Positions 6,279 to 26,097 are shown, numbered from the stretch's first letter. The stretch: DNA of 32,000 nucleotides from Acaryochloris marina S15 (GCF_018336915.1 NZ_CP064923.1:5460001-5492000), one strand, 5' to 3'. Notes: a model not told the origin generated them from the letters alone. Numbers and translations: made by a program.

Positions 6279-6992
6279 CGTGACCTCAAAGTAGAAGGCT
6301 CAGGACCCTGCACACATCAAAATACTAACTTGCAAAGCGATGGGGAAATGAATTTACAAGCCTGAGTTAGTTCTTGCACACCATATTTTAGGATTTATCT
6401 GCTGTTTCCACGCAGCTTACATCAACACTTAGAGTCTTTCTGGAGAGAATATTTCTTTGATGGGGTTCAACATTACCCGTGTCTACCCTTAGCTCCTTAC
6501 TTTCTGAGATAAAGGTGTCTCTTAATTGTTTAATGCATAGTATAACGAGGTATTTTCAAGAGAGTAAAACCACTAAAATTTCTAAAAGCCTTATGGGTTA
6601 AGACTTCTCACCTTATGCTCAGTGCAATAATCCATAATGAAAATTTTTAATTCTTGTGAATAATATTATATTTAGACTTCTATAATTTGTCTCAACTCAT
6701 TATCAGTAAACATCTCATGCCCTGGGAGTAGTTTTGTGACAAGGTATTTTATTGAGTGTGGAAGTAGGGTATAAACTATTTAGTGAATCTAACTTCTTTT
6801 TTCCCTAAGATTCATATTAGAATTACTCCATTCGATAGAATCTTTTCATTTGATTTCCTTTTTGTTGCCACTTCTATTTTCTTTGGCTATCCTTATGGAG
6901 TGTAATTTAGATCACAGCATTTCTTGTTTTACAAAACAGAAGTGTGGGGGCATCCTAACTAAAACCTATATTTTCTACAAGCGAGAGCACTC
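6279..6992. promoter_or_regulatory. Long AT-rich divergent intergenic region between the wzc-like gene and the exported-protein genes
   Basis: This is 714 bp with no convincing ORF and is visibly more AT-rich than the flanking genes. It must hold the promoters for both divergent units. It contains a TGT-N8-ACA dyad (tgttttacaaaaca, 6925-6938) about 55 bp upstream of the ATG at 6993. Confidence 0.6.
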
Positions 6993-7580
6993 ATGGATAA
7001 ATTAAGAAGAGTGGCTAAATTGTCGATTGTGGTTGGTGTTGTTTCCCTGTGCCCAGCAATTGTTACTCCTCAAGCAGCCTCTGCAGAGTCTATTTCTCCT
7101 ACGACTGCAGTAGGACAAGCCCCTCAGAATTACGGTATTGTTCGATCGACAGGCCTTAACACTCTTGAAATTAGACATTTGAGTGGTGGCTATCGGACCT
7201 ATTCTGTTTCTAGCGATTTAACGGCTTCTATGGCCCTGAGCCCAGGCGATTTTGTCGCTTACAATGCTGATGCCAGCGGTACGTTAACGCAACTTCAGCC
7301 CCCTAGAATTGCTCGCATCTTTGAAGGGACTATCTCTAACATTCAAGGGAATCAAATTACGGTTGTTGCTCCAGACGGTTCTTCTTTGACCACAACCGTT
7401 GCGGCTAACTCCATTAATCGACTAGAGCTATCTCCTGGAAAGGGCTTAAGTGTGACTCAATACGAGGGCCTGAGCGCTACTAAAGTATGCTGTATTTCTA
7501 AGTTTACGCAACAGCCTCCGGTGCTCCTACCCCCGGAACCCACTGCTGCACCGCCTCAACCCATCCCAGCCTTATGGTAG
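6993..7580 (+). CDS. Exported hypothetical protein (signal peptide, Pro-rich C-terminus)
   Basis: It has an ATG start and an N-terminal signal-like sequence (KLSIVVGVVSLCPAIVTPQAASA/ES). The C-terminus is PPVLLPPEPTAAPPQPIPALW. I recognise no family. Confidence 0.6.
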   Translation: MDKLRRVAKLSIVVGVVSLCPAIVTPQAASAESISPTTAVGQAPQNYGIVRSTGLNTLEIRHLSGGYRTYSVSSDLTASMALSPGDFVAYNADASGTLTQLQPPRIARIFEGTISNIQGNQITVVAPDGSSLTTTVAANSINRLELSPGKGLSVTQYEGLSATKVCCISKFTQQPPVLLPPEPTAAPPQPIPALW

Positions 7581-11061: not shown

Positions 11062-11282
11062 CTCGGCAACGGTTATGCAGACGGACTTTAGGGTAATCCG
11101 TAGGGAGATGACCGCCTCCAATCCTACCGATAAATGGATTCGCTACCGGAAAACGCAACAGAATGTTGTCATTCCCGCCCAATTCCACTGATTTTTTAGG
11201 CAGAAGAGTAAATAAAGACTGTCGCTTCATTCCAGACGAAGGGCATTCTAGGGCCATAAATAGACCCATCTCTGTTAGTCAG

Positions 11283-13619
11283 ATGTCGAAAAGTCGACGA
11301 TACCGACCATTTTTACTCTTATTTGCGATTGGCATATTTCTAGGATTCTTAACTGCCACCCATCCTAGGCTGATCGCCAATCCTCACCTGTTCCATGCCC
11401 AAGCCTACTGGACTCCAACCGTCACTCAGACGGTGGATCAAACCTCTTTGGCGGGCACCTGGGAATTTCAAGCTGACCCACAGCCGACCGCTGACAAGCT
11501 AGTGCTGCAACCGAGTGGACCCAATATTCCACCTATTCCCCAGGGCCAATGGCAAGAGATTGCAGTGCCTTCCAACTGGTACTTACAAGGGCAAGATATA
11601 TCGGGGGTGGTCTGGTATCGCCATCAGTTTCGCGCCAATGAGCGATGGCGTCAGAAGCTGACTCGTCTAGTGTTTTCGGGGGTCGATTACACCGCAGACG
11701 TTTGGCTCAATGGTCAGTATTTAGGCTTTCATGAGGGCTACTTTCAGCCCTTTTCCTTTGATGTGTCTAAGGCTCTGATGTTTACGGGCCAGAATGAATT
11801 ACTGGTGCGGGTCAATAGCCCTTTGGAGCCTCAAGGCCAGGATTGGTCCCTCCGCAAACGCTTAATTAAAGGCATTTTTAGTCACCACGATACCCGTCCA
11901 GGTGGAGCTTGGACCGATCGCGGCCAAGAGAAAAATACCGGAGGTATCTGGGCCCCGGTATTTTTGCAAGTCTCCGATCAGGTCGCCATTGAAACGATTC
12001 AAATCACCCCGGAGTTAGACGCCGACTACCAACAGGCCACGGCTAAGGTGGATCTAGTAGTCAATTCTCCAGGACTGGGCAAGACGAATCTTGATGCCCA
12101 TGTGCAGTTGGTGCCAGAGAATTTTTCGGGGTTACCCATTGGACCTATTCGCGTGAAACGCACCCTGCATCAAGGGGCTAATCACCTGAAGCTACAGATT
12201 CCTGTAGATGACCCGAAACTATGGTGGTCTTGGGAGCATGGAGACCCCAATTTATATCGCCTTACGGTGCAGTTGGCCGATGGCAGTCGACTGCTGGATA
12301 AAGCGTCAGATGTATTCGGATTTCGCACCATTCAGTTTGACCCGACCGAAAAAATCTGGCGACTGAATGGTCGCCGCCTATTTTTGCGAGGCACCAATTA
12401 CATTGCCACCCAGTGGCTCAGTGAAATGACGCCGGAGAAATACCAGACGGATATTGACCTGATGAAAGCGGCCAATATCAATACGGTACGAGTCCATGCC
12501 CATATCATCGGCAAGGATTTTTATAAGCTGTGCGATCGCAACGGCGTATTCATCTGGCAGGACTTTCCTTTGCAGTGGGGCTATGAAGATACTCCCCAAT
12601 TTCTCCAGGAAGCTACCCGCCAAGCCAAGGATATGATTGGCTACCTTTACAACCATCCTTCGATTCTGGCCTGGAGTCTGCATAATGAGCCGCCCTGGGA
12701 TGCGGACTGGATGAAGTACAAATACAAGACCTACGATCCAGAGCAAAATCGCGAGTTAGACGCCAAGCTATTGGCCAACCTGCAGGGAGAAGACCCCACC
12801 CGCCTCTTACATCCCGTGTCTACCGTCGGGGAGCATCCTTGGTTTGGTTGGTATTCCAACACCTTCTATAAATATGCAGAACCGACCACAGAAGCCATTA
12901 TTTCCGAATTTGGCGCTCAAGCTTTACCGCATCTAGAGTCCCTACGGCGCATCTTTACGGAAGACGAGCTATGGCCGGATACAGAAGCGGAATGGGACAA
13001 GTGGCTGTATCACAACTTTCAGCGCCATGAAACTTTCAATATTGCCAAGGTGCCCATGGGGAATACGACCCAGGAGTTTATCGATAATACCCAACAGTAT
13101 CAATCCCAACTGATTCAGTTTGCCGCCGAAGCCTATCGCCGCCAGCGTTATCAGCCCGTCTCATCGATTTTTCAATTTATGTTTGTGGAGGATTGGCCTT
13201 CTGTCAATTGGGGCATTGTTGATTACTGGCGACAGCCCAAACCCGGCCATGAGGCTCTGAAATGGGCCTACCAGCCCGTATTGCCTAGTATTGCTTGGCC
13301 TCAACTCACCTGGACTTTGGAGGAAACCGTAGAGCTGGAACTCTGGGCCATCAATGATTTATGGAAGGACTATCCAGAGGCAACCTATACCTATACTCTC
13401 CGCCAAGGCCAAAAACGCCTTAAATCTGGCAAAAGTAGGATTAATTTAACCGCAGATAGCAGCCAGCCTGTCGATAAGATTTTTTTTCAGCCCCAAAACT
13501 TGGGCAACTACACCGTCACAGCCACGATCAAAGATCGGCTAGGGACGGTATTAGGGGAAAACCAGTTTACGTTTGATGTGATTGATCGGGGGGATCAAAC
13601 CAATGAGTCGACGTCGTAA
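11283..13619 (+). CDS. Glycoside hydrolase family 2 protein with an N-terminal membrane anchor
   Basis: The GH2 sugar-binding region is present (VFSGVDYTADVWLNGQYLGFHEGYFQPFSFDVS). So is the TIM-barrel region (FLRGTNYI, NINTVRVHAH, ILAWSLHNEPPW with the NE acid/base motif). The likely start is the ATG at 11283 (MSKSRRYRPFLLLFAIGIFLGFL signal/anchor) rather than 11163. Confidence 0.85.
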   Translation: MSKSRRYRPFLLLFAIGIFLGFLTATHPRLIANPHLFHAQAYWTPTVTQTVDQTSLAGTWEFQADPQPTADKLVLQPSGPNIPPIPQGQWQEIAVPSNWYLQGQDISGVVWYRHQFRANERWRQKLTRLVFSGVDYTADVWLNGQYLGFHEGYFQPFSFDVSKALMFTGQNELLVRVNSPLEPQGQDWSLRKRLIKGIFSHHDTRPGGAWTDRGQEKNTGGIWAPVFLQVSDQVAIETIQITPELDADYQQATAKVDLVVNSPGLGKTNLDAHVQLVPENFSGLPIGPIRVKRTLHQGANHLKLQIPVDDPKLWWSWEHGDPNLYRLTVQLADGSRLLDKASDVFGFRTIQFDPTEKIWRLNGRRLFLRGTNYIATQWLSEMTPEKYQTDIDLMKAANINTVRVHAHIIGKDFYKLCDRNGVFIWQDFPLQWGYEDTPQFLQEATRQAKDMIGYLYNHPSILAWSLHNEPPWDADWMKYKYKTYDPEQNRELDAKLLANLQGEDPTRLLHPVSTVGEHPWFGWYSNTFYKYAEPTTEAIISEFGAQALPHLESLRRIFTEDELWPDTEAEWDKWLYHNFQRHETFNIAKVPMGNTTQEFIDNTQQYQSQLIQFAAEAYRRQRYQPVSSIFQFMFVEDWPSVNWGIVDYWRQPKPGHEALKWAYQPVLPSIAWPQLTWTLEETVELELWAINDLWKDYPEATYTYTLRQGQKRLKSGKSRINLTADSSQPVDKIFFQPQNLGNYTVTATIKDRLGTVLGENQFTFDVIDRGDQTNESTS

Positions 13620-15348
13620 GTTAAGGACGCTATTGATCTGTTTTGTCGCCTCAGTCGCCCTCACGATTGGGATTGCCAAATGGGTCTGTAGCCAGCAGCT
13701 CGCTGAAGACTTTGCACCTAAAATTGTCCTCAACCAAGTTGGATATCGCGCCAATTGGGACAAGGTGGCCTTTTTACTCAATGCGGAAGATAATGCACCT
13801 ATTAAAACAAAGGTCGTTGACCATCAATCTGGGAAAACAGTAGCGACGATCCAGCCTGGGTCTGCTGAATTAGATGAACAGAGTCGCGATCGCATCCAAA
13901 CTCTAGACTTCTCCAAGGTCAAAAGATCCGGTGAATACTACCTGCAAACAGGTGAGTTAAAATCCGTTCCCTTCCAAATTGGCCAAGATATTTATCAAGA
14001 CACCTTTACCAAACTCCTGCGCACCTATTATTTACAGCGTTGCGGCACGGTTATCTTTGACCCTATTACCGGGATTTATCATCCTCCCTGCCATATCAAA
14101 GATGCCTTGTTAGCCCATGATGATGCCTTCCACAAAGCAGGCGACACCGTTCAAAGCCAGGGCGGCTGGCATGATGCAGGAGACTATGGCAAGTATGTGG
14201 CGACCACAACCGTCACCATCGGTAGCTTATTCAGCCTATACGAGCAATATCCCCAGAACTTTACCGACGGCCAGTTAGATATTCCCGAAAGTGGTAACAA
14301 GGTTCCCGATTTACTAGACGAGATGAAAGTGGGTCTAGACTGGCTACTCTCCACTCAACGCCAAGATGGCGGTGTCTATCGCAAGCTCTCAGGTAAAGCC
14401 TGGCCCATTGGCAAAGCGCCCCATGAAGACCAGCAGCCCCGCTATTTATATGGTGTGTCTACGCCTGAAACCGGAAAATTTGCGGCGGTGATGGCCATGG
14501 CAGGTCGGATTTACGAAGAGAGTCAACCCAAACTAGCCCAAACATATCTGGATTCAGCTCGCCTGGCTTGGGACTATTTGCAGACCCAAGACAAAATGCA
14601 AGAGAGCTGGATTGATGGAGATGATAGCGGTTCCGGTAAGTATCTCCAGTCGGAGATTGACATCGAAGACAGTCTGAAAACCGATATTGACGATCGATAC
14701 TGGGCCGCCGCCGAATTATTCCTCACCACCGGAGACTCACAATATGAGCAATATCTGGTGGACCATTTCGACCAGATGCCCTTTAACCTCTATGAGTGGA
14801 AGGATGCCTCAACCCTAGGGATGGTGGATTATTTGCTCTATGCCAAGGCAGACCCCAACCAGCTCAAACCCCAAATCCGCGAAAAGCTCCTCGCCCGTGC
14901 CGATCAAATTATGGAGCGGGTCGAAGGAAGTGGCTATCGCCTCGCCAACCATCGCTTTATTTGGGGTTCCAACAAAATGACCGTCGAAGAAGGCATTACC
15001 TTAATCCATGCCTATCGCCTGACCCAAGACGCAAAATATAAAGCCGCCGCCCTCGATCAGCTCCACTACATGATGGGCCGCAATCATTTTGATCAAACCT
15101 TTGTCACGGATGTGGGCACCCATCCCGTGGAAAATGTGAACCATCTGTTCGCTAGGGCCAAGAAAATTAAAATTCCGGGGTTAGTCGTAGGTGGCCCGAA
15201 TGACGGAGCCCAGGATAATATTGCTCCCAAAGGGTTAGGCATTCGCAGCTATCTCGACAGCGAAAAGTCCTATGCCACCAATGAATATGCCATTGACTAC
15301 AACGCGCCCCTAATAACTCTTTTGGGAATGTTGTTAGAAACGTCTTAG
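13603..15348 (+). CDS. Glycoside hydrolase family 9 endoglucanase-like protein (N-terminal anchor + Ig-like domain + GH9 catalytic domain)
   Basis: GH9 signatures GGWHDAGDYGKY and YATNEYAIDYNAPL are present, along with an (alpha/alpha)6-type core. The likely start is the ATG at 13603 (MSRRRKLRTLLICFVASVAL). That start overlaps the last 17 nt of the GH2 gene. Confidence 0.88.
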   Translation: MSRRRKLRTLLICFVASVALTIGIAKWVCSQQLAEDFAPKIVLNQVGYRANWDKVAFLLNAEDNAPIKTKVVDHQSGKTVATIQPGSAELDEQSRDRIQTLDFSKVKRSGEYYLQTGELKSVPFQIGQDIYQDTFTKLLRTYYLQRCGTVIFDPITGIYHPPCHIKDALLAHDDAFHKAGDTVQSQGGWHDAGDYGKYVATTTVTIGSLFSLYEQYPQNFTDGQLDIPESGNKVPDLLDEMKVGLDWLLSTQRQDGGVYRKLSGKAWPIGKAPHEDQQPRYLYGVSTPETGKFAAVMAMAGRIYEESQPKLAQTYLDSARLAWDYLQTQDKMQESWIDGDDSGSGKYLQSEIDIEDSLKTDIDDRYWAAAELFLTTGDSQYEQYLVDHFDQMPFNLYEWKDASTLGMVDYLLYAKADPNQLKPQIREKLLARADQIMERVEGSGYRLANHRFIWGSNKMTVEEGITLIHAYRLTQDAKYKAAALDQLHYMMGRNHFDQTFVTDVGTHPVENVNHLFARAKKIKIPGLVVGGPNDGAQDNIAPKGLGIRSYLDSEKSYATNEYAIDYNAPLITLLGMLLETS

Positions 15349-15891: not shown

Positions 15892-16497
15892 GTGAATACG
15901 CCTAGCCACGCGATTATCAACCTTGCCCTGCTCATGAATGTGACGGAGCAGCCAGCAGTGTTGGCCGTGACGGCGGGAGCCATTGCCCCGGATCTCCCCA
16001 TGTTTGTGTTTTATTTCTGGGTGAAGGGGATTCGGAAGTTACCAGAAGGCCAAATCTGGACGGAAGCTTACTATCATCCCTTTTGGCAAACCTGCATCGA
16101 TCTATGCCATTCCATTCCATTGGCGGGGCTAGCGGCTTGGGGCTGCTGGCAACTGGGCTGGATGCCTGCGGCCCTATTTTTTCTCAGCATGATTCTCCAC
16201 TCTTTAGGCGATTTGCCCGTTCATAATGACGATGCCCATAAGCATTTTCTACCGCTGAGTCAATATCGACTAATTAGTCCCCTGTCATATTGGGACCCGA
16301 AGCATTACGGTCGGCAAGTGGCGTTTGTAGAGATGCTGCTGGTGTTGGGGACTTCGGTATTGACGTTTCCAATCTTGGGTAATATTTGGGGCCAAGGGTT
16401 GGTGGTGTTGGTGAATGGGTTTTACTGGTTTACCTTTGGCTATACGTTTTTGCGGAGACAGCTTCCTAATTTGTTGTGTCGGGCGCGGAATGCTTGA
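15892..16497 (+). CDS. Integral-membrane, His-rich metal-dependent-hydrolase-like protein (YdjM/DUF4184-like; family uncertain)
   Basis: It has a GTG start, 5-6 hydrophobic spans and His motifs (TPSHAI, LCHSIP, ILHSLGDLPVHNDDAHKH). The family assignment is from pattern memory only. Confidence 0.5.
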   Translation: MNTPSHAIINLALLMNVTEQPAVLAVTAGAIAPDLPMFVFYFWVKGIRKLPEGQIWTEAYYHPFWQTCIDLCHSIPLAGLAAWGCWQLGWMPAALFFLSMILHSLGDLPVHNDDAHKHFLPLSQYRLISPLSYWDPKHYGRQVAFVEMLLVLGTSVLTFPILGNIWGQGLVVLVNGFYWFTFGYTFLRRQLPNLLCRARNA

Positions 16498-16500
16498 AGG

Positions 16501-18861
16501 TTAGGTTTCGTCGAAGGATAGGTTGGCGAAATGTTCTTGCAGGTAGCGATGGACGAAGACATAGCTGCCGCCTGTGCGATAGATAAATACGCAATCTTCG
16601 GCTTGTTGGAAAAAAGTGACGAAATTCCAAGGGATTTGCTTAGTTTGGCAGAGGACTAAACGCATTGACAAGTGTTGAGTACAGGGGTCTATTCCTTCGT
16701 TGTTGAGGATTAAAAAGAGTGGTAACACCATGAATAAGGCAATAATGAATCTCACTACAAATGGTTCTAGGAACAGAGGTAAAATATTTACCAGAGTAAA
16801 ACAAAGAACAATCATAAAAACAAGCGACACGATAACCTGTATCACTATCGTTTTTAAAGATCCCCAAATAACTTGATTAGGAAAAGTTCGATCTAGAATA
16901 TCGACTTTTAGCCCTCCAATCAGCTTGATACTTAGCCCTCCAATCAGCTTGATACTCTCCCCGAGAATCAATCCGAAAATTAGCCCGAGAATCAGGCCTC
17001 CAATCAGCCCGTAACTCTGCATGAAAAGCCCCCCGAAACTCAGCGCGTATGTCAGATAGCTTTCAAGGAGCTTCCAACTTCTTCGTCCCGTTTTGCGAGG
17101 CATTGGATTTTCTATAGCTTTTACTGAATACATCTTATCTCGCCTAACACTCAGCCCGAAAATCAATCCGATTAGCCCGAAAATTAGCCCAGAAATTAGT
17201 CCTCCAATTAGCCCAAAAACCCTTCCAATTAGCCCGAAAATTAGCCCGAGAATTAGCCCCCAAGCCAGCCCATAAAGCAGCCTATAAAGCCATTTAGTCC
17301 TTTCAGCTTCTACTAGATCCATCCCAACATACAGCCCTCCATACAGCCCCATTAGCCCTCCAAATAGCCCTCCGACAATACCTCCAAATAGCTCTCCGAC
17401 AATACCTCCAAATAGCCCGCAAATCAATCCGAAAATCAATCCGAAGATTAGCCCAAGAATCAGCCCAAAAAGCCATTTAGTCCTTGCTGTCTCCAGCCAA
17501 TCTTTGGGTTTCATTCGTTCGATCAAGAACTCTTTCCCCGCTCCCGTTTTCTTCGCTATTCCTTGCAGCCAGTGCAACATTTGTTGCTGTTCCGGCTCAG
17601 GTAAAGACCGCTGGGCAAACATTCGCTCAATATAACGATCAAACAGGAGTTTTAAGCGTTGGTCTTTAGGCAAATCCAGTAATTCCTGAGCTGGACGATT
17701 GCGATAGGCCAAAGTCAGAATCCATAGAAAAAGCGGCTTATTCACTAAGTCCCGTAAGGAGGGATCTGCCCCTAAAGCAGTTGCAATCCCTACTAACGCT
17801 TCCCCTCCCTCTTGTAAGTAATCATCTACCTGCTTTTCTGACAAAGGTTGAATATACACTGCTGCCTGAAACTCTTCTAAACGAGTGATCAAGGCTTGAT
17901 AGTCTACAATTCGGCAACACAGTGCGATTTCGATATTGCCAAACTTTTGCCGAAACTGATTCAATGCTTCCACACAAGCATCGCGATCTTGGGGTTTGAC
18001 TTCATCCAAACCATCCAGCAGCAAGGTCCATTTTTCCTGCTCCAGCCAAGTTTTTCCCACTTCTTTGCGAACTTGATATTGCTGCCATAACTCCTCCAGC
18101 AGCCACTGGGTAAAGGCCAGCGTTCCATCGTTAGGGAACTGCTGAGTGCCCCAAGCTGACAAATTCAACACAATCGGGATAGGCTGTTTTAGCTCTTGAA
18201 AATCAGTCGCTTCTAATAAATCTTGAGCCAGCTCCAAAAGCAAGGTTGTTTTCCCGGCACCCGGCTCCCCCAGCACCAACAACGTTCCGCCACCCCCCAA
18301 ATTAGCAAATCGATCCAACAGCCGCGTGCCAGGGGGCAACACCTGTTTCTCTTCTCCCGCCCTTTGCCACTCCATCCCCACCATCTCAGGCCGCTCTTCC
18401 AATCCCACTGCAATCCGAGCCTGCTCATACAGAGAGTTTTTCAAAACCCCATCAATCCATTTCACCCCCACCTTATCCATCAAGATTTGACGATTGTCTT
18501 GCCACCGGGCTTCATCCAATTCAGATGCTGTCAATATCGAGGGCTTGCGGACAAGCTGCACCACATCCACCACCATCATGCCCAGTAGCCCCACCAGCAC
18601 AACGCTATACAGCAAGCCAATCACTTTGGCAGTTGGGTTATCACTGCTAAAAGCAGCCATTGCCTCTGGAAAGACTCTGCCAATAAACCCCAACACGGCG
18701 GTTTCAACCACCAGCTTCAGCCATCGTCCCCATTTGGCTTTTTTCTGGTCAGCCGCAACTTGCCCCACCACCCAGCCCAACACCACCGGAATCAATACCG
18801 TGAACAGAGGCACCACAACCGTCTGAAAATTCGGATCACTCAGCAGTTTTTGAAGCATCAT
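16501..18861 (-). CDS. Membrane-embedded NACHT-family STAND NTPase with a C-terminal glycine-zipper transmembrane array
   Basis: Three N-terminal hydrophobic spans precede the NACHT core, which has Walker A LLVLGEPGAGKTTLLLELA and Walker B WTLLLDGLDEV. Then comes roughly 290 aa of GLIxGL/GGxxG hydrophobic repeats. The protein ends with FIYRTGGSYVFVHRYLQEHFA, a motif typical of the helical module after a NACHT core. I could not recognise any WD40, TPR or LRR repeats. Confidence 0.85.
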   Translation of the reverse strand: MMLQKLLSDPNFQTVVVPLFTVLIPVVLGWVVGQVAADQKKAKWGRWLKLVVETAVLGFIGRVFPEAMAAFSSDNPTAKVIGLLYSVVLVGLLGMMVVDVVQLVRKPSILTASELDEARWQDNRQILMDKVGVKWIDGVLKNSLYEQARIAVGLEERPEMVGMEWQRAGEEKQVLPPGTRLLDRFANLGGGGTLLVLGEPGAGKTTLLLELAQDLLEATDFQELKQPIPIVLNLSAWGTQQFPNDGTLAFTQWLLEELWQQYQVRKEVGKTWLEQEKWTLLLDGLDEVKPQDRDACVEALNQFRQKFGNIEIALCCRIVDYQALITRLEEFQAAVYIQPLSEKQVDDYLQEGGEALVGIATALGADPSLRDLVNKPLFLWILTLAYRNRPAQELLDLPKDQRLKLLFDRYIERMFAQRSLPEPEQQQMLHWLQGIAKKTGAGKEFLIERMKPKDWLETARTKWLFGLILGLIFGLIFGLICGLFGGIVGELFGGIVGGLFGGLMGLYGGLYVGMDLVEAERTKWLYRLLYGLAWGLILGLIFGLIGRVFGLIGGLISGLIFGLIGLIFGLSVRRDKMYSVKAIENPMPRKTGRRSWKLLESYLTYALSFGGLFMQSYGLIGGLILGLIFGLILGESIKLIGGLSIKLIGGLKVDILDRTFPNQVIWGSLKTIVIQVIVSLVFMIVLCFTLVNILPLFLEPFVVRFIIALFMVLPLFLILNNEGIDPCTQHLSMRLVLCQTKQIPWNFVTFFQQAEDCVFIYRTGGSYVFVHRYLQEHFANLSFDET
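16909..16956 (-). repeat. Perfect in-frame 24-nt tandem duplication inside the NACHT gene
   Basis: tagccctccaatcagcttgatact occurs twice back to back (16909-16932 and 16933-16956) with 24/24 identity. It encodes SIKLIGGL-SIKLIGGL. Confidence 0.95.
17155..17262 (-). repeat. Degenerate 12/9-nt periodic repeat encoding GLIF/GLI glycine-zipper units
   Basis: The plus strand reads agcccgaaaatc aatccgatt agcccgaaaatt agcccagaaatt agtcctccaatt agcccaaaaacc cttccaatt agcccgaaaatt agcccgagaatt. A 17-nt match, aaagccatttagtcctt, at 17286-17302 and 17469-17485 is 183 nt apart. That marks a duplicated 61-codon module beginning (E)RTKWL. Confidence 0.9.
17370..17417 (-). repeat. Second in-frame 24-nt tandem duplication (23/24 identical) inside the NACHT gene
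   Basis: ctccgacaatacctccaaatagcT (17370-17393) is followed by ctccgacaatacctccaaatagcC (17394-17417). Together they encode the GGIVGELF/GGIVGGLF units. Confidence 0.93.
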
Positions 18862-19192: not shown

Positions 19193-21097
19193 ATGCTCCA
19201 TTGTCTGAACCCCACTTGCAGCAATCCTCAAAACCCAGACGGGCGTGACACCTGTCAACAATGCGGACAGCCCCTGATCGGCATATTGCGCAATCGATAT
19301 CGCATCATCAAACCACTGGGACAAGGTGGATTCGGCATCACTTATCTGGCCGAAGATATCGAGAGATTTAACGAGACTTGCGTGGTTAAACAATTAGCCT
19401 ATCAAAACCCTGATAGCCTCGCATCGCAGCAAAAAGTCCAAGACCTCTTTACCCAAGAAGCCCAACAGCTCTTTCAGCTCGGCACCCATCCACAAATCCC
19501 CAACCTGCTAGCCTACTTTCATGAAACAGGGCATCAATATTTAGTACAAGAATTTATCGAAGGTCCCAATCTTCTGCAAGAGCTGAAAAGCAACGGGGTA
19601 TATAGTGAATCCAAGCTGAGACACTTTCTCCGTAGCATCTTGCCCGTTCTAGACTATATCCATACCCAAGGCGTCATTCATCGCGATCTCAAACCCCACA
19701 ACATCATGTATCGCCCCGCCGATGATCGCTATTTCATCATCGACTTTGGCGTCACCAAGCAAGTCAATACTCAAGACCTCACAGGCACTGTATTAGGCAG
19801 CGAAGGATACGCCGCCTTCGAACAACTCCAATATGGTCAGGCCCATCCCGCGAGTGATTTATATAGTTTGGGGGTGAGCTGTTTTCACTTCTTGACAGGC
19901 CATGATCCAAGATCACTCCAGCTTCAGGTCGGGTATTCATGGACCCAAAACTGGCAGCAACATCTCCCAAAGCCCCTCAGCCCTGAGCTCACCTCAGTTC
20001 TTGACACCCTGCTCCAACTGCAACTAGAGAATCGCTATACCTCTGTTGCAGCAGTGCTCAAAGATTTAGCCCTCACCCAAACTTCTCCCCCCAAAAATCA
20101 AGTCGTGGCTCACAGCCAGCCACCTGCCCATCCACAACCCAAGCTTGAGTTAGCTCCAACCACTGACCGGACCGCCGTTATCTGGGAACCAACGAGCGAT
20201 ATCTCGACTTCATCCGCCTCTGCTGCGTTACACCCACCCTTACAAACCACACAGTTTGAAGTAGTAACCCTCGATGTAAGGGGGCAAACTCATTTGGTTC
20301 AGACCCTTACCGCCCAACAATATCTCGAAGAACTAGGAGACGGCATTTCCCTCTCGATGCTCGTTATCCCGGCCAGAAGTTTCTTCATGGGTTCATCGTC
20401 AACTGAAGTATCAAGACGCAAATTTGAAGGACCTCAACATCAAGTCTCAGTTGCCTCCTTCTACATGGGCCAATTCCTGATCACTCAAGCTCAATGGCAA
20501 GCCATAGCGGCTCTTCCCACCATCAACCATGACCTCTCCCCAGATCCATCGCAGTTCAAAGGAGCCGATCATCCAGTTGAGAGTATTTCCTGGCTAGATG
20601 CTGTCGAATGTTGTGACCGACTCACCCGCAAATTCAATCGACTCTATCGTCTACCCAGTGAAGCAGAGTGGGAATATGCTTGCCGAGCCAACACCACCAC
20701 CCCCTTCCACTGTGGCGAGACCCTCATCTCTGATCATGCTAATTTTCATGGCATGAAAACCTATCGATCCGCCCCTAGAGGTCAGTATCGCAACCAAACC
20801 ACTCCTGTAGGCAGTTTTCAAGCCAATGCTTTTGGCCTCCACGACATGCATGGCAATGTCTGGGAATGGTGCGCCGATGATTGGCATGCCAACTATCAAG
20901 GGGCTCCCATAGATGGCAGCATTTGGTTCACCCCAAACAACGATGCCATCGCAGGCAAGGCTCCCCATCCTTGGAGAGGTGGGTCTTGGTATGATGCCCC
21001 CGACAGCTGTCGGGCTGCCTATCGAACCTTTGCGGATGCCGACTTTAAGAGCAGTAATTTAGGCTTTCGAGTGGTCTCTCCAGTTCTATCCCCCTAA
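19193..21097 (+). CDS. Soluble Ser/Thr protein kinase with an N-terminal 4-Cys zinc ribbon and a C-terminal FGE-sulfatase (SUMF1-like) domain
   Basis: The zinc ribbon is CLNPTCSNPQNPDGRDTCQQCG. Hanks kinase motifs are intact: GQGGFG, VVKQL, HRDLKPHN (codons 163-170) and DFG (codons 184-186). A Pro-rich linker leads to the FGE-sulfatase fold (VIPARSFFMGS, HPVESISW, PSEAEWEYACR, HDMHGNVWEWC, RGGSW, SNLGFRVV). No TM segment is present. Confidence 0.9.
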   Translation: MLHCLNPTCSNPQNPDGRDTCQQCGQPLIGILRNRYRIIKPLGQGGFGITYLAEDIERFNETCVVKQLAYQNPDSLASQQKVQDLFTQEAQQLFQLGTHPQIPNLLAYFHETGHQYLVQEFIEGPNLLQELKSNGVYSESKLRHFLRSILPVLDYIHTQGVIHRDLKPHNIMYRPADDRYFIIDFGVTKQVNTQDLTGTVLGSEGYAAFEQLQYGQAHPASDLYSLGVSCFHFLTGHDPRSLQLQVGYSWTQNWQQHLPKPLSPELTSVLDTLLQLQLENRYTSVAAVLKDLALTQTSPPKNQVVAHSQPPAHPQPKLELAPTTDRTAVIWEPTSDISTSSASAALHPPLQTTQFEVVTLDVRGQTHLVQTLTAQQYLEELGDGISLSMLVIPARSFFMGSSSTEVSRRKFEGPQHQVSVASFYMGQFLITQAQWQAIAALPTINHDLSPDPSQFKGADHPVESISWLDAVECCDRLTRKFNRLYRLPSEAEWEYACRANTTTPFHCGETLISDHANFHGMKTYRSAPRGQYRNQTTPVGSFQANAFGLHDMHGNVWEWCADDWHANYQGAPIDGSIWFTPNNDAIAGKAPHPWRGGSWYDAPDSCRAAYRTFADADFKSSNLGFRVVSPVLSP

Positions 21098-21400: not shown

Positions 21401-23278
21401 ATGGTTTGTTGTCTCAATCCCAAGTGTGAGAAACCCCTCAACCCAGACACCAGTAAGTTTTGTCAACAGTGTGGTACAAAACTAACCCTGTTACGGCGAC
21501 GGTTTAAGATGGTTCGTCTGTTGGGTAAAGGTATGTTTGGCCATACGTATCTTGCAGAAGATCGAGATAATTTGCAGGAGCCCTGCATTGTCAAACAGCT
21601 AATTTGTCAAGCCCAGGGAACGGATGCCAGCCAGACGGTTGTTGAACCATTTTTACAAGAGGCAGAACAACTCAGACGGCTGAAAAAAAACCAACATATT
21701 CCCAGCATTTTAGCTTACTTCGAAGAAAATTATATTCCCTATTTAGTCCAGGAATATATCGACGGCCAAGACTTGCAACAAGTCATTGAGAATCAGGGTG
21801 CCTTCAGCGAGAATCAAGTCCGGGCCTTGTTACTAGAGCTCTTGCCGGTCTTACAGACGATCCATGATCAAGGGGTGATTCATCGGGACTTGAAACCCGC
21901 TCACATCATGCGTCAGCATTCAGATAGCAAGCTGATTCTGGTGGGGTTTTGTGTCTCCAAGCAACTCAGTTTATCTCAGTTACAGCAAACCGATAGCGTT
22001 CGAGAGAATACCAGCTACGCACCACCAGAAGTCTTTGCCGTCGATAAAGCTCGTCCCGGCAGCGATCTCTATAGCCTAGGTGCCACCTGCGTCCATTTAT
22101 TAACGGGAGTTGCTCCCCATGCTTTACCCATCCAAGGTGGAGAAGTATGGGTCGAACACTGGCAACAGCATCTTCCCCAGCCCTTGAGTGCTGAATTAAA
22201 GCCTGTGCTGGAGAAGTTACTCCGCACAGACCTAGCGGAGCGATATACTTCCGCCTTAGAAGTGCTCAGAGAAGTGCGCGGTTTTGCCAAAGCAACCTCC
22301 CGCCCCCTGCCCAAAATACCCGCCGTTCGAGCAGCCCAGACCTCTGGTCAGACAGCCCCACAAGCAGTCAGATCTCAGCCCAAGGCCCCGGCCCAGCCCA
22401 CCAAACTGCAGCCTAAACCCAAATCTTCCATCCCTTCCTTCCAAGCGGAAGTCGCCCAGGTCGATACCAAAGGCCAAGTGGTGAGTCGCCAATTTCATCC
22501 GATTGGCCACATCACCGAGGATCTCGGTAAGGATGTCACCCTGGAGTTGGCGCAGATTCCGGCAGGCCGCTTTTCCATGGGCTCGCCCCCTAGCGAGCAG
22601 CATCGGCAGCAGACCGAAAGTCCCCAGCATATTGTGTCTATCCCAGAATTTTATTTAAGTCGCTATCCCATCACTCAGGTCCAATGGCGTTTGGTGGCCG
22701 CCTTACCCGCAGTCAAGCGCGAACTGGATGATTCTCCGTCTCACTTTACGGGCGATGATCGCCCTGTCGAAAGCGTCTCTTGGTTTGATGTGGTCGAATT
22801 CTGTAACCGACTCTCCTTGTTAACTGGGAAGGACTATCACCTCCCTAGTGAATCTGCTTGGGAATATTCCTGCCGCGCCGCTAGTAACACCCCCTTTGCC
22901 TTTGGCGAAACCCTCAACACAGAACTGGCCAACTATGATGGCACAGCAGCCTATGGAGCTGGACCGACAGGCAATTTTCGCCAGCAAACCACCCGAGTGG
23001 GCAAATTCCCGGCCAATCCCTATGGGTTATCCGATATGCATGGCAATGTCTGGGAATGGTGTGCAGACCATTGGCATGGCAACTATGGCAATGCCCCAGT
23101 AGACGGCAGCGTCTGGCAAGATCAATACTTCTTTGCCTGTGTACTGAGGGGAGGGGCCTGGAATACCCAAGCCGCGAGCTGTCGTTCCGCCTCTCGCATT
23201 TGGGAAGCGGCCTCTGAACAAAGCAATCATATTGGGTTTCGGGTTGCTTGTACCTTAGTGAAACCAGCCAGCTCATAA
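21401..23278 (+). CDS. Paralogous zinc-ribbon / kinase-like / FGE-sulfatase protein; kinase domain predicted catalytically degenerate
   Basis: It has the same architecture as the upstream gene: CLNPKCEKPLNPDTSKFCQQCG, GKGMFG, IVKQL, and an FGE fold with IPAGRFSMGS, RPVESVSW, PSESAWEYSCR, SDMHGNVWEWC, RGGAW and NHIGFRVA. However, the catalytic loop reads HRDLKPAH, so Asn is replaced by His at codon 168. The DFG motif reads GFC at codons 182-184. Confidence 0.88.
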   Translation: MVCCLNPKCEKPLNPDTSKFCQQCGTKLTLLRRRFKMVRLLGKGMFGHTYLAEDRDNLQEPCIVKQLICQAQGTDASQTVVEPFLQEAEQLRRLKKNQHIPSILAYFEENYIPYLVQEYIDGQDLQQVIENQGAFSENQVRALLLELLPVLQTIHDQGVIHRDLKPAHIMRQHSDSKLILVGFCVSKQLSLSQLQQTDSVRENTSYAPPEVFAVDKARPGSDLYSLGATCVHLLTGVAPHALPIQGGEVWVEHWQQHLPQPLSAELKPVLEKLLRTDLAERYTSALEVLREVRGFAKATSRPLPKIPAVRAAQTSGQTAPQAVRSQPKAPAQPTKLQPKPKSSIPSFQAEVAQVDTKGQVVSRQFHPIGHITEDLGKDVTLELAQIPAGRFSMGSPPSEQHRQQTESPQHIVSIPEFYLSRYPITQVQWRLVAALPAVKRELDDSPSHFTGDDRPVESVSWFDVVEFCNRLSLLTGKDYHLPSESAWEYSCRAASNTPFAFGETLNTELANYDGTAAYGAGPTGNFRQQTTRVGKFPANPYGLSDMHGNVWEWCADHWHGNYGNAPVDGSVWQDQYFFACVLRGGAWNTQAASCRSASRIWEAASEQSNHIGFRVACTLVKPASS

Positions 23279-23355: not shown

Positions 23356-26097
23356 ATGGAAGTTCTCTCCGTTACGCTGAAAAACTTTAAGGCCCATCGC
23401 GATCGCTACTATGAATTCCGACCGGGGGCCAATGCCATTTGTGGTGAAAATGGGTCAGGGAAGACCAGCATCCTAGAAGCCATTGCCTGGGTTTTATTTG
23501 ATCACAGCGAGTACAAGCGAGCCGAACTAATCACCGTCGGGGCCAAAAGTGCCCAAGCCATCGTCAGCTTTATATCCCACTTGGATGGGCGAATCTACGA
23601 GGTGCGTCGCTGTACTAGTCGGGGCTATGAGGTTCACGACCCCCAGCTCAACCGCAAGCTAGAACTGAAAAAACTCGATGATGTCCGCTGCTGGCTCTGT
23701 GAACATTTGGGGGTGGGGGTCCACACGGAACTGGCCAAATTGTTTGCAGAAACCATTGGCATTCCCCAGGGCACCTTTACAGTGGATTTTCTCAAATCAG
23801 CGGGCGATCGCAAAAAGGTATTCGATCCCATTCTGAAGGTGGAAGAGTATAAACAGGCTTACGATCAGGCCCAAAAATTAACCAGTTATGCCCAGGCCCA
23901 GGTCCAACAGCTAGAGCAAAAATTACAAAGCTACGACCAGCAACTCGAAGGCTGGGAAGCGCTTAAGCAACAGAAGCTAGAGCTAGCTAAAACCTTGACT
24001 CAGCAGATGGCCCAGATGCAAACCCTGGCTCAGCAGTTGGGTGAGATTCGGACTGAACTCAAGGATTTAAAGACCCAAGACCAAGCCATCCAAACCCTAG
24101 ACAAACAGGTCCAGCATCTCCAAACCCAATGGACCAGTAAACAGGAAATTCTCCAGCTCTTAGAGGAGAATTGGCAGCAGGCAGACCAAGCCGTCCAGAT
24201 TTGTCGTCAGCATCGGCCTCAATTTCAGGCCTATCAAGCGGCCCAAGAGACCCTCAAGGCCCTCGCTCAACAACAAAAACAACGACAGCAACTGCTGCAA
24301 GAACGCGATCGCATCCAAAATACCCTCCGCGATCAGCAAGTCCTACTCTCCCAAAACCAAGGCCAACTCTCCACCTTTGCCAAGATGGACGCAGAACTCC
24401 AGGACTGGCAAACCAAAGTTCCGCAACAACAGCAGCTCGACCAAGAAAAGACCACTTGCCAACAGGCCCTCCAAACCCTAGTCTCCGACCAAAAACACCT
24501 ACAGCGACTGCAAGAGCAAATCCACAAACAGCAGCAGAGTTGGGAAACCCTCAGCCAGACCATTCGCCAACTGGTCGCCCTAGAACCACAAGTTCAGGCC
24601 ATTCCTAACTTCGAAGCCCAGCAGCAGAAGATTCAAGAACGGCTGGGACGAATTGCCGCCGCCCAGCAATTTGCCACAGAATTACAGACATTACTGACCG
24701 AGGCTGAACCCCAACAACAGCACTATCAGCAGCAAGTAGACACAGCGAAAGATCTGCTCAGTCGTTCCACCCTGAACCCAGCCCAGACCACTCAACTCGC
24801 CACCATTTTGGACCAAGGGGCTGCCCTCACCCACCAGATTATTCAGCAGCTCCAAACAGCTTTTGCCGACATTATTGATCCCCAGACCGTCACCAACCTC
24901 AAGCAACAGCTTCGGCAGATAAAAACCCAACTCAAAGCCGCCCAAAAAGCCCAAACCCAATGGTTGATGCTAGAGGCCCAACAGCATCAGCTAACGGAGC
25001 TAGAGCAAGGGATGACGTCACTGCAGCAAGAGTGCGATCGCATCCAGGTCACCCTCAACCAAGAGCCCCAGCTCCAGAGCCAACTAGCACAGCTCAATAC
25101 CCAGCTAACGGCACTCAGCGACCCCCAGGGCCATGTCCGCATCTTGCAGCAGCAGCTTCAAGGAGCCACCCAGCTAGAAGCAGAGATCACTCGCCTTCAA
25201 CAGGCCTGTCAAGGTCATCAGCAGTCCCTCACAACCTTTGAAACCCAGGTCGAAGCCTTGGGAGATCTAGAAGCCCAAGTCGATGCCCAACAGCAGATCC
25301 AGCAAGAGCATCAGGAGGTGTATCAGCGCTATTTACGCCATCGGAATCAGGCCAATACCTTTAAAGACCTAGATCAGCAACGCCAAGGTGCGATCGCTAC
25401 CCAAACCCAACTCCAAACCCAGTTAACGGGTGCTCAAGCCCAATGGCAGGAAAAGCTCAAAGATCATAATCCTGAGCGGCTAGCTGAAGTGAGTCACACC
25501 TATGAACAATTGCAGCGACACCATGACCAGCTCCAGGGGGGACTAGCCCCCCAACAGGCTCAGCTGCAATATCTCGATCAGCAATTGGAAGCCAAGCAAG
25601 CCCTCGCCCAAGAGCGCGATCAGATCTGGGTGACCTTAGAGGATAAGCGCCAAATCTCACAGTTCGTTATCGATGCTCGCAACGTCTACAAGCAAAGCGG
25701 TCCTCGAATCACCAAATTTTACCTGACAGAAATTTCTTGGGAGGCGGATCGGCTCTATCGGGAGCTGCTCGATCGGCCTGATGTGGCTTTACAGTGGACT
25801 GAAGATTACGAAATTCAGGTACAAGAGCAGGGCCATTGGCGTAGCTTCAAAAGCCTGTCGGGGGGAGAGCAGATGTGTGCTGCTTTAGCCGTGCGCCTAG
25901 CCTTGCTGAAAGTCTTAGTCGATATCAATATTGCGTTTTTCGACGAGCCCACAACGAACATGGATGAACTGCGTCGTCGACAGTTGGCCGAAGCCTTGGG
26001 GCATCTCAAATCCTTCCATCAGCTGTTTGTGATCAGTCATGACGACACTTTTGAGAGCGTTACAGAAAATATTATTCGGGTAGAGAGAGCGAGTTAA
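23356..26097 (+). CDS. Rad50/SbcC-like SMC-family ABC ATPase with a very long Gln-rich coiled coil
   Basis: The N-terminal head is LKNFKAHRD...ICGENGSGKTSILEAI (Walker A), followed by about 600 aa of Q-rich heptad-like sequence. The C-terminal head has SLSGGEQMCAALAVRLAL (signature), IAFFDEPTTNMD (Walker B/D-loop) and FVISHDD (H-loop). There is no CxxC in the coiled-coil region and no nuclease gene next to it. Confidence 0.85.
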   Translation: MEVLSVTLKNFKAHRDRYYEFRPGANAICGENGSGKTSILEAIAWVLFDHSEYKRAELITVGAKSAQAIVSFISHLDGRIYEVRRCTSRGYEVHDPQLNRKLELKKLDDVRCWLCEHLGVGVHTELAKLFAETIGIPQGTFTVDFLKSAGDRKKVFDPILKVEEYKQAYDQAQKLTSYAQAQVQQLEQKLQSYDQQLEGWEALKQQKLELAKTLTQQMAQMQTLAQQLGEIRTELKDLKTQDQAIQTLDKQVQHLQTQWTSKQEILQLLEENWQQADQAVQICRQHRPQFQAYQAAQETLKALAQQQKQRQQLLQERDRIQNTLRDQQVLLSQNQGQLSTFAKMDAELQDWQTKVPQQQQLDQEKTTCQQALQTLVSDQKHLQRLQEQIHKQQQSWETLSQTIRQLVALEPQVQAIPNFEAQQQKIQERLGRIAAAQQFATELQTLLTEAEPQQQHYQQQVDTAKDLLSRSTLNPAQTTQLATILDQGAALTHQIIQQLQTAFADIIDPQTVTNLKQQLRQIKTQLKAAQKAQTQWLMLEAQQHQLTELEQGMTSLQQECDRIQVTLNQEPQLQSQLAQLNTQLTALSDPQGHVRILQQQLQGATQLEAEITRLQQACQGHQQSLTTFETQVEALGDLEAQVDAQQQIQQEHQEVYQRYLRHRNQANTFKDLDQQRQGAIATQTQLQTQLTGAQAQWQEKLKDHNPERLAEVSHTYEQLQRHHDQLQGGLAPQQAQLQYLDQQLEAKQALAQERDQIWVTLEDKRQISQFVIDARNVYKQSGPRITKFYLTEISWEADRLYRELLDRPDVALQWTEDYEIQVQEQGHWRSFKSLSGGEQMCAALAVRLALLKVLVDINIAFFDEPTTNMDELRRRQLAEALGHLKSFHQLFVISHDDTFESVTENIIRVERAS

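Follow-up and report, generated by a model that had tools for sequence, protein, structure and literature searches.

We analyzed a stretch of 32,000 nucleotides (nt) from Acaryochloris marina S15 (NZ_CP064923.1:5460001-5492000; we will call this the window). A complete open reading frame (ORF) in the window encodes a 786-residue NACHT protein, which is an NLR-like STAND ATPase (Table 1); a protein that we label P0001 is 100% identical to it. The accepted picture of NLR and STAND immune switches is of soluble proteins whose repeat domains recognize cytosolic ligands. In this protein, a large hydrophobic block with many glycines appears to lie inside the switch itself. A preliminary description of the locus had discussed nt 16504-17500, which is the 3' third of the ORF (amino acids, or aa, 455-786). 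It proposed that a glycine-zipper array was inserted within the C-terminal part of the NACHT module and that the array could form a membrane lesion.

Table 1. Features of the NACHT gene and its product (positions count from the first letter of the window)
Feature	Position	Strand	Evidence
Complete ORF with stop codon; 786-aa NACHT (NLR-like STAND) ATPase, predicted to be membrane-embedded	16501..18861	(-)	ORF list, Pfam, homologs
N-terminal domain with 2-3 hydrophobic helices, aa 1-106	18544..18861	(-)	Hydropathy and AlphaFold
NACHT nucleotide-binding domain, aa 193-351	17809..18285	(-)	Pfam and Foldseek
Walker A GEPGAGKT, aa 198-205, with catalytic Lys204	18247..18270	(-)	Sequence
Walker B DGLDE, aa 283-287	18001..18015	(-)	NACHT signature D[GAS]hDE
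Helical domain 1 and first part of winged helix, aa 352-458	17488..17808	(-)	AlphaFold, collinear alignment to Gloeocapsa NACHT
Inserted putative membrane block of 266 aa, aa 459-724	16690..17487	(-)	Hydropathy, GxxxG, AlphaFold, charge
Lineage-specific extra module, about aa 489-545	17227..17397	(-)	Alignment occupancy <0.2
Conserved loop motif PNQ, aa 661-663, part of T.PNQGIW.S between hairpins	16873..16881	(-)	
Second part of winged helix, aa 725-786 (62-aa soluble tail)	16504..16689	(-)	AlphaFold, profile match, Foldseek
His771 of FVH(771)R	16549..16551	(-)	Invariant in family
Imperfect 12-nt and 24-nt tandem repeats encoding GLxx / GLxxGLxx units	16908..17445	(-)	Tandem Repeats Finder

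The NACHT module and its predicted membrane block

The protein matches Pfam's NACHT family (PF05729) with 40.8 bits (E = 2.7e-10), above the cut-off of 26.7 bits. The NACHT profile also matches all 22 family members from which the block was spliced out, with a best E value of 2.1e-15. Among 75 aligned family members, the main residues of Walker A (G198, G201, G203, K204, and T205) and all of Walker B (D283, G284, L285, D286, and E287) are invariant. D[GAS]hDE, which the Walker B fits, is the NACHT signature as defined by Kibby et al. (bioRxiv 10.1101/2022.07.19.500537).

C-terminal to the AAA+ core, NACHT and STAND proteins have a winged helix with a histidine motif of the type F.H..QE.FA. The protein has this motif too, on the far side of the block: its soluble tail includes FVHRYLQEHFA, and FIYRTGGSYVFVHRYLQEHFA corresponds to aa 759-779. 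F769, H771, and E776 are invariant in the 75 sequences. In closed NLRs such as NLRC4 and Apaf-1, the winged-helix histidine contacts ADP. His771 is the positional counterpart of this residue, and it may have the same role.

In the full-length AlphaFold model (pLDDT, the predicted local distance difference test, of 81; pTM, the predicted template modeling score, of 0.69), the first helix of the winged-helix domain (WHD) spans roughly aa 422-439. It is followed by a short strand and a turn, ...FLIERMKPKDWLE. The sequence ahead of the block, ...LHWLQGIAKKTGAGKEFLIERMKPKDWLE, finishes at aa 458. The tail is modeled as helices at aa 724-739 and 747-756, strands at 760-763 and 766-769, and a helix at 772-779 (block-mean pLDDT of about 80-93).

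We also removed the block and joined aa 123-458 to aa 725-786. This spliced, 398-aa query was compared to plasmids with tblastn, and a spliced model was built from it together with intact homologs. Most of the tblastn matches were in two pieces, which implies that those proteins bear an insert. The NACHT-HEAT protein of Gloeocapsa PCC 7428 (WP_015211463.1), which lacks transmembrane (TM) segments, gave a one-piece match across the junction. A profile of the 22 spliced members aligns to the Gloeocapsa NACHT as a single domain (profile positions 74-389 of 393; 77.9 bits), up to YAFVHRTFLEYF. Even alone, the profile of the post-insert segment finds the YAFVHRTFLEYF site, with 11.8 bits; the maximum from 2,000 shuffles was 8.1 bits. 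The spliced AlphaFold model (pLDDT 86, pTM 0.82) retains the helix/helix/beta-hairpin/helix ending.

When we compared the two models to the PDB with Foldseek, the top matches of both were NOD2, NLRC4, NAIP5, and NLRPs, including NLRP3. We compared the models by column counts, E values, and TM-scores. The insert breaks the sequential alignment of the full-length model: its top alignments have about 355-373 columns, and those of the spliced model have 405-418 columns (E = 1.6e-9 to 6.5e-9). The query-normalized TM-score of the spliced model is 0.49-0.54 against NOD2 (5irm/5irn) and NLRC4 (4kxf/8fvu). Cdc6/ORC proteins, which have an AAA+ domain and a winged helix, also aligned to it over about 380 columns. 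Like the window's protein, the best-matching metazoan NLRs (NOD2, NLRC4, NAIP5, and NLRP3; 5irm, 4kxf, 8fvu, and 7alv) have a nucleotide-binding domain, helical domain 1, and a WHD, in that order, closing in F.H...QE.(F/L)A. Unlike it, they are soluble, they continue with helical domain 2 and LRRs after the WHD, and they have no membrane insert; sequence identity is just 13-17%. Sequence searches of the PDB, with the full protein or with the spliced profile, gave generic P-loop matches (midasin, ABC, F1-ATPase, and ORC4) and were silent on the C-terminal segment. Pfam found no winged-helix family, such as NOD2_WH, in the 22 spliced members.

Given the profile alignment, the AlphaFold models, and the Foldseek results together, we conclude that the insert sits inside the winged-helix domain. 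The models support an insertion point after the first helix and short strand of the WHD, and before its last two helices, the wing, and His771.

The block has four hydrophobic stretches, whose Kyte-Doolittle means (over 19 residues) peak at 2.3-2.9. It can be divided into three glycine-zipper helical hairpins (about aa 459-514, 520-572, and 591-650) and one hairpin of two ordinary hydrophobic helices (about aa 663-721). The glycine-zipper part (aa 459-650) contains 43 glycines, 26 instances of GxxxG, and 19 instances of [GAS]xxxGxxxG. In 5,000 composition-preserving shuffles, GxxxG was found 9.3±2.4 times on average (at most 18 times) and [GAS]xxxGxxxG was found 2.7±1.7 times (at most 11 times). 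The rest of the protein holds one GxxxG. This pattern is therefore not due to chance. Across the family, the median count of [GAS]xxxGxxxG is 10 per block. None of the protein's 17 Pfam matches with E<=1 was to a glycine-zipper family (Gly-zipper_Omp, Gly-zipper_OmpA, Gly-zipper_YMGG, or Rick_17kDa_Anti).

The block is repetitive at more than one scale. The first two modules begin with ARTKWLF (aa 459) and ERTKWLY (aa 520), and they are identical at 24 of 61 amino acids (39%) and at 93 of 183 nucleotides (51%). The low identity implies that they are old or diverged repeats, and we rejected a recent tandem duplication given that just 51% of the nucleotides match. The shorter tandem repeats beneath the block correspond to units of 4 and 8 codons; for instance, a 24-nt unit occurs twice at 16908-16956 with 100% identity. 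The extra module listed in Table 1 is missing from most relatives, including both of the syntenic orthologs described below (L006 and L007), which have a gap there. Other parts of the block are conserved. The motifs I.PVE.LKWSW, T.PNQGIW.S, and GGG.ACIQHF.LRL.LY lie between the hairpins and at the exit from the block, and P661, N662, Q663, and S668 are each at least 90% conserved in the 75 sequences.

Hydropathy, the AlphaFold helices, and the distribution of charges all suggest that the block is inserted in a membrane. Uncharged spans at aa 463-489 and 491-514 are separated by E490 alone, those at 528-546 and 548-572 by R547 alone, and those at 671-698 and 705-721 by EPFVVR; another uncharged span, at 601-634, is followed by an amphipathic stretch. 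The intervening loops, which are presumably cytoplasmic, have 2, 3, 9, and 5 lysines and arginines, versus 0-1 in the tight turns. Both ends of the block must be on the same side as the NACHT module, which is the cytoplasmic one. The simplest topology, which is uncertain, would be four helical hairpins with about eight passes and almost nothing exposed on the far side. The outer turns would be only 1-6 residues long, which points to an intramembrane role rather than a periplasmic one.

These results agree with most of what the preliminary description said about the protein's structure. The strings that it quoted are present, and the two copies of (E)RTKWL[FY] are indeed 61 codons apart. Its glycine zippers stand out from all 5,000 shuffles. 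That the region is an insertion, and not a terminal fusion, is supported by the one-piece Gloeocapsa alignment, the pLDDT of the spliced model, and the longer Foldseek alignments. Similarly, the segment profile and the helix/helix/hairpin/helix ending support its assignment of the last 60 or so residues to the NACHT module. It described about 290 aa of glycine-rich array: the hydrophobic block is real but totals 266 aa, and the zippers occupy only about 190 of these. The preliminary description did not mention the hydrophobic helices at the N-terminus, which are relevant to the mechanism. Hydropathy places these at aa 10-38 and 76-106; AlphaFold has helices at 10-33, 39-71, and 76-104.

A family with variable N-termini and a hypervariable insert

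A search of 5.8 billion proteins gave over 2,000 matches to the protein. Almost every match with a named organism was cyanobacterial, and the closest named relatives are from Acaryochloris. Among the top 120 matches, almost all of the complete proteins share a layout of Walker A, about 260 aa, 3-7 hydrophobic stretches, and the motif F[IV]HR.L[LQ]EHFA, which lies 12-25 residues before the C-terminus. In most members, including the window's protein, nothing follows the WHD; there is no repeat-type sensor, and multiple TM regions are inserted in the NACHT module instead. The median length of the block is about 210 aa (range 112-294). We will call these proteins the NACHT-TM family.

The split layout is shared by plasmid-borne NACHT proteins of Crinalium and Nostoc. 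It is also found in a plasmid NACHT from Streptomyces xanthophaeus (L002, 3389-5167), with NACHT at aa 44-357 and the C-terminal piece of the split winged helix at aa 545-579. So, the design is not confined to cyanobacteria. The Streptomyces TM insert is of an ordinary, non-zipper type, and its WRLGWSW motif resembles the LKWSW loop of the cyanobacterial proteins.

A search of 1.84 billion representative proteins with just the TM block gave 135 matches, of which 130 were new. Walker A is present in 61 of the new matches, and 42 of these have the C-terminal motif as well. Another 45 lack Walker A, are mostly short, and end with F.H..L.E.FA. The remaining 24 have neither landmark and are mostly short. 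Nothing in these 135 matches suggested that proteins outside of the NACHT-TM family use the block as a mobile module. A search with the N-terminal 118 aa gave one fragment; the word index limited the reach of this search.

This architecture has already been noted in the literature. The Supplementary Discussion of Kibby et al. (2022/2023; bioRxiv 10.1101/2022.07.19.500537) describes a class of bNACHT proteins whose sensors are "TM regions" and proposes intramembrane sensing. The NACHT-TM family resembles this class in its D[GAS]hDE NACHT module, in its variable N-terminal effectors, and in being enriched and paralogous in cyanobacteria, and the window's protein has the TM regions of this class, with four hydrophobic stretches (about eight helices) and nothing after the WHD. 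The paper gives the class one sentence, with no mapping or experiment. To this we add the insertion point in the winged helix, the array of zipper hairpins with conserved loops, the hypervariability of the block among orthologs, and an N-terminus with TM helices instead of an enzyme. Our look-ups in Table S1 of that paper, where TM segments are not annotated, did not find the clade that holds the NACHT-TM family. A literature search for NACHT plus "glycine zipper" found no paper.

We classified the N-termini of 92 complete relatives. Long, enzymatic-type N-termini are present in 33 of these; their domains include Pkinase (about 15), cyclase (about 6), the AAA-like PF14516 (5), TIR (4), and caspase (4), as well as REC, trypsin, and CHAT. 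Another 28 have N-terminal TM helices, as in the window's protein, and 27 have short N-termini that carry motifs rich in N, Q, G, V, and I. Judging from sequence comparisons, the N-terminus is the variable output end of these proteins and the membrane block is a constant module in the place of a sensor. Given the variability of the N-termini, the N-terminal TM helices of the window's protein would be the positional equivalent of an effector: aa 1-106 appear to fill the slot where relatives have effector or adaptor domains.

The short N-termini might be adaptors. At one locus (L015, 3520-9123), the NACHT-TM protein's N-terminus reads AVTGDRNQTIGQVLGGIVINHLTIHE, or in short form AVTGDRNQTIGQV..., and the C-terminus of the 155-aa helical protein that is encoded upstream, HVTGNQNQVIGQVTGGKVFGSVQGNVTISE, matches this motif. 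The N-terminus of the TPR protein that is encoded downstream also has the motif (..VTG[DN][RQ]NQ.IGQ..), so three consecutive genes share it. At another locus (L014, 2702-8630), the motif is common only to the NACHT-TM protein and the downstream nSTAND1-WD40 protein; we did not see a shared N/Q/G-rich motif at the C-terminus of the upstream CHAT protein. By analogy, this layout matches the gene-pair arrangement that was described for bacterial amyloid signaling, in which Bell-domain effectors are paired with NLRs (BASS; Dyrka et al. 2020, bioRxiv 10.1101/2020.01.06.895854). The likeness is one of gene layout and of a shared motif: the relatives with short N-termini have an N/Q/G-rich motif in common with a small helical protein that is encoded upstream and with a neighboring STAND. 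Unlike these relatives, the window's protein has no such motif or partner, and the BASS NLRs in that description have TPR or WD repeats instead of TM inserts. BLASTP found no match between the N-terminal domain of the window's protein and the Bell-like protein of L015.

Synteny at the locus extends to the chromosome of Acaryochloris marina (AP026075.1) and to one other, Acaryochloris-like assembly. The genes that they have in common run in the order SMC-like ATPase, two Pkinase-FGE-sulfatase genes, the NACHT gene, a 201-aa membrane protein, GH9, GH2, DctP, and epimerase. In the closer assembly, the neighbors are 96-100% identical, the N-terminal and NACHT parts of the protein are 97% identical, and the tail is 92% identical, versus 51% (with 24% gaps) for the block. 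In A. marina, the neighbors are 78-98% identical and the N-terminal, NACHT, and tail regions are 77-84% identical, versus 23% for the block. Across nine close orthologs, the length of the block varies from 106 to 266 aa, with 25-51% identity.

The block's rates of nonsynonymous (dN) and synonymous (dS) substitution are both raised (dN of 0.22 vs. 0.013; dS of 0.30 vs. 0.055). The variation is therefore due to turnover of the repeats, to recombination, or to both. Because dS is elevated as well, the data do not demonstrate positive selection on the block (dN/dS = 0.72). Among more distant members of the family, we found no conserved neighbor, which suggests that these are single-gene systems.

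What the membrane block might do

We give roughly even odds (a probability of about 0.5) to the idea that the block serves as a sensor or anchor within the membrane, inserted in the winged helix with which a NACHT switch senses nucleotides, and that output is via the N-terminal domain. The NACHT module (P-loop domain, helical domain, and winged helix) would be on the cytoplasmic face. The chain would leave the split winged helix after the first helix and short strand, enter the membrane as about four hairpins (three of them glycine zippers) with short outer turns, and then return to finish the winged helix with two helices, the beta-hairpin wing, and the invariant histidine in FVHR. The winged helix keeps NLRs in the ADP-bound, closed state, so the insert may be placed to turn an event within the membrane into the release of autoinhibition. 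Candidate triggers are the binding of a membrane protein (whether foreign or the host's own), altered lipid packing, or a shift in membrane potential. Nucleotide exchange, and then oligomerization in the plane of the membrane, might follow. The output would depend on the N-terminus: in relatives, it could be a kinase, TIR, caspase, cyclase, or amyloid-type adaptor. In the window's protein, the 2-3 N-terminal TM helices could perturb the membrane once they are clustered.

A more specific version of this proposal is that the zipper array, which is hypervariable and polymorphic in length, is an intramembrane recognition surface, the counterpart of LRR or TPR sensors. It might bind phage membrane proteins (holins, or proteins for injection or superinfection exclusion) or sense what they do to the bilayer. 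Slippage and recombination in the 12/24-nt repeats would diversify it, and it would unlock the NACHT switch directly. We view this version as a long shot. If true, it would give the first mechanism by which an NLR-type protein recognizes patterns within a membrane.

Several points weigh against the proposal of a sensor or anchor in the membrane. AlphaFold draws the first two modules as continuous helices of about 54 residues, not as hairpins, which makes both the topology and the count of passes uncertain. The hypervariability may reflect weak constraint plus slippage in the 12/24-nt repeats. For the 27 of 92 relatives with neither an enzymatic nor a TM N-terminus, output depends on the adaptor reading, which we checked in two loci. 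Finally, the locus is a stable chromosomal site among polysaccharide-metabolism genes and not a defense island. PADLOC gave only local P-loop matches (at best, 4.8e-5 over 28 residues), and the NCBIfam matches were also at the P-loop level (EruA had 29 bits against a cut-off of 1000). So, the PADLOC and NCBIfam models do not assign the protein to a known defense system (the bNACHT antiphage class).

The preliminary description held instead that the zipper array is itself the effector: NTP-driven oligomerization of NACHT would gather the zipper helices into a pore or ion conduit, which would cause abortive infection. Glycine zippers are reportedly common in homo-oligomeric channels and in membrane toxins, and the block is dense with them (19 [GAS]xxxGxxxG versus 2.7 expected). 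Like those channels and toxins, it repeats this motif on hydrophobic helices. Unlike them, it is internal to an ATPase module, and not a small secreted or stand-alone membrane protein, and it matches no glycine-zipper family in Pfam, even at E<=1. Pfam finds no enzymatic domain in the window's protein, and 27 of the 92 relatives have little beyond NACHT and the block. But in STAND systems, the effector is usually a swapped part and not a constant one. Relatives keep the architecture of the block whether their effectors are TIR, caspase, kinase, cyclase, or trypsin domains or they pair an amyloid adaptor with a separate small protein. A constant block with swappable N-termini argues against the block being the effector. 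The block also lies in the regulatory winged helix, in the position of a sensor, and not at a terminus, and its sequence and length are hypervariable between orthologs, which would be unusual for an element that lines a pore. We therefore think that an effector role for the array is unlikely. It stays a rival because there is a precedent for membrane effects that are coupled to an NTPase. Tmn is a decameric P-loop NTPase with TM helices inserted in its NTPase domain; it is a membrane defense protein that exports Mg2+ after its cytosolic solenoid arm senses a phage protein (PMC13001434). Tmn, YobI, and the KAP NTPases (Aravind et al. 2004, PMC416466) resemble the NACHT-TM family in that they are P-loop NTPases of signaling or defense whose TM helices are inserted within the ATPase module instead of being appended to it. 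Unlike NACHT-TM proteins, they belong to other NTPase families: YobI has two TM helices inside its P-loop domain, versus 6-8 in the winged helix of a NACHT STAND, and the solenoid arm of Tmn has no counterpart in the NACHT-TM family. The window's protein is not a member of the KAP/YobI group, as its insert is in the WHD, about 260 aa after Walker A. It has no match to KAP_NTPase in Pfam, and 9 of the 22 members have weak matches (best E = 0.0053).

The insert could also be a passive anchor or scaffold that tethers NACHT to the plasma or thylakoid membrane, with lateral self-association via GxxxG, while the NACHT surface, the N-terminus, or partners do the sensing. In favor of this, the block has low sequence identity and a free length (106-266 aa) but retains its hydrophobicity and its periodic glycines, and a rise in both dS and dN is as expected for repeat turnover under weak constraint. 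The Streptomyces relative has an ordinary TM insert in its split winged helix, without zippers. In some relatives, the N-terminal motif recurs in a neighboring STAND protein that has a TPR or WD40 sensor and could do the sensing. However, a simple anchor does not need 6-8 helices, nor does it need to break the domain that gates nucleotide exchange. The conserved loops (I.PVE.LKWSW, T.PNQGIW.S, and GGG.ACIQHF) imply a specific function beyond hydrophobic tethering, and most members of the family have no other candidate sensor domain in cis. Overall, a purely passive insert seems possible but rather doubtful to us. A further alternative is that the protein has no role in immunity and is a signaling ATPase for membrane stress or development in cyanobacteria, which relays the status of the envelope or thylakoid to kinases, cyclases, and receiver domains. 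The stable, syntenic site in Acaryochloris, beside GH2/GH9, DctP, epimerase, and exopolysaccharide (EPS) genes, fits this idea, as does the lack of a full-length match to a PADLOC or NCBIfam antiphage model. The N-terminal Pkinase, cyclase, and REC domains of the relatives are also ordinary signaling domains. On the other hand, other relatives have TIR, caspase, CHAT, trypsin, and amyloid/Bell-like pairings, a set that is typical of conflict systems (Kaur et al., Kibby et al.), and some relatives adjoin PemK or PIN toxin genes. In the window itself, the NACHT gene's neighbors include two Pkinase-FGE-sulfatase genes, an architecture that is associated with conflict. Fast evolution of one region in an otherwise conserved ortholog fits conflict better as well. 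We consider a purely non-immune role improbable.

Under any of these explanations, a large and mostly cyanobacterial family has 6-8 predicted membrane helices running through the very domain that controls nucleotide exchange. Should the insert prove to be a sensor, it would show how an NLR-type switch can read events inside the membrane, and it would define a novel type of hypervariable surface for a receptor. An insert that serves only as an anchor or a pore would still illustrate how the oligomerization of STAND proteins can be organized in two dimensions. Because the family is abundant, has single-gene members, and provides natural variants in insert length and in N-terminal output, these ideas are directly testable. 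The window's gene adds one well-defined member with syntenic orthologs, not a new principle. Its chief contributions are the insertion point that we mapped, a block that is hypervariable between syntenic orthologs, and clear experimental handles.

Neighboring genes

Convergent with the NACHT gene, with 3 nt between the stop codons, is a gene for a 201-aa hydrophobic protein with no match in Pfam (15892-16497, + strand). This protein is 95% conserved in both syntenic loci, in contrast to the adjacent NACHT insert. On the other side, and divergent from the NACHT gene, are two tandem genes (19193-21097 and 21401-23278, both + strand) whose products join a protein kinase at the N-terminus to an FGE-sulfatase (FGS) domain at the C-terminus. 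Acaryochloris marina has both in synteny (78% identity for the first and 93% for the second). The kinase-FGS architecture has been tied to bacterial conflict systems in the literature. Beside this pair is a gene for a 913-aa ATPase of the SMC_N / AAA_23 / AAA_15 type (23356-26097, + strand), which is 99% identical in L006. A separate SMC fragment with a hinge domain is at 219-2558 (+ strand). Scans of the window for tRNAs and Rfam families found nothing.

The region resembles a polysaccharide-metabolism locus, with GH2 and GH9 as well as DctP, epimerase, glycosyltransferase, Wzz/BcsQ-type, and PEP-CTERM proteins encoded upstream. As listed, the ORFs for GH2 (11163-13619, + strand) and GH9 (13582-15348, + strand) overlap by 38 nt. 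The true overlap is probably smaller, given that the GH9 ORF has a TTG start codon and that its orthologs begin 7 codons further on. The G+C content is 0.384 at 6001-7000, versus 0.45-0.55 elsewhere in the window; this is near an intergenic stretch and an ORF without Pfam matches (6993-7580).

A relative with N-terminal TM helices and the NACHT-TM layout (P0018; L009, 8176-9451) is encoded directly upstream of PemK-toxin and PIN-domain genes. This setting hints at a defense or toxin neighborhood, unlike the window's own locus.

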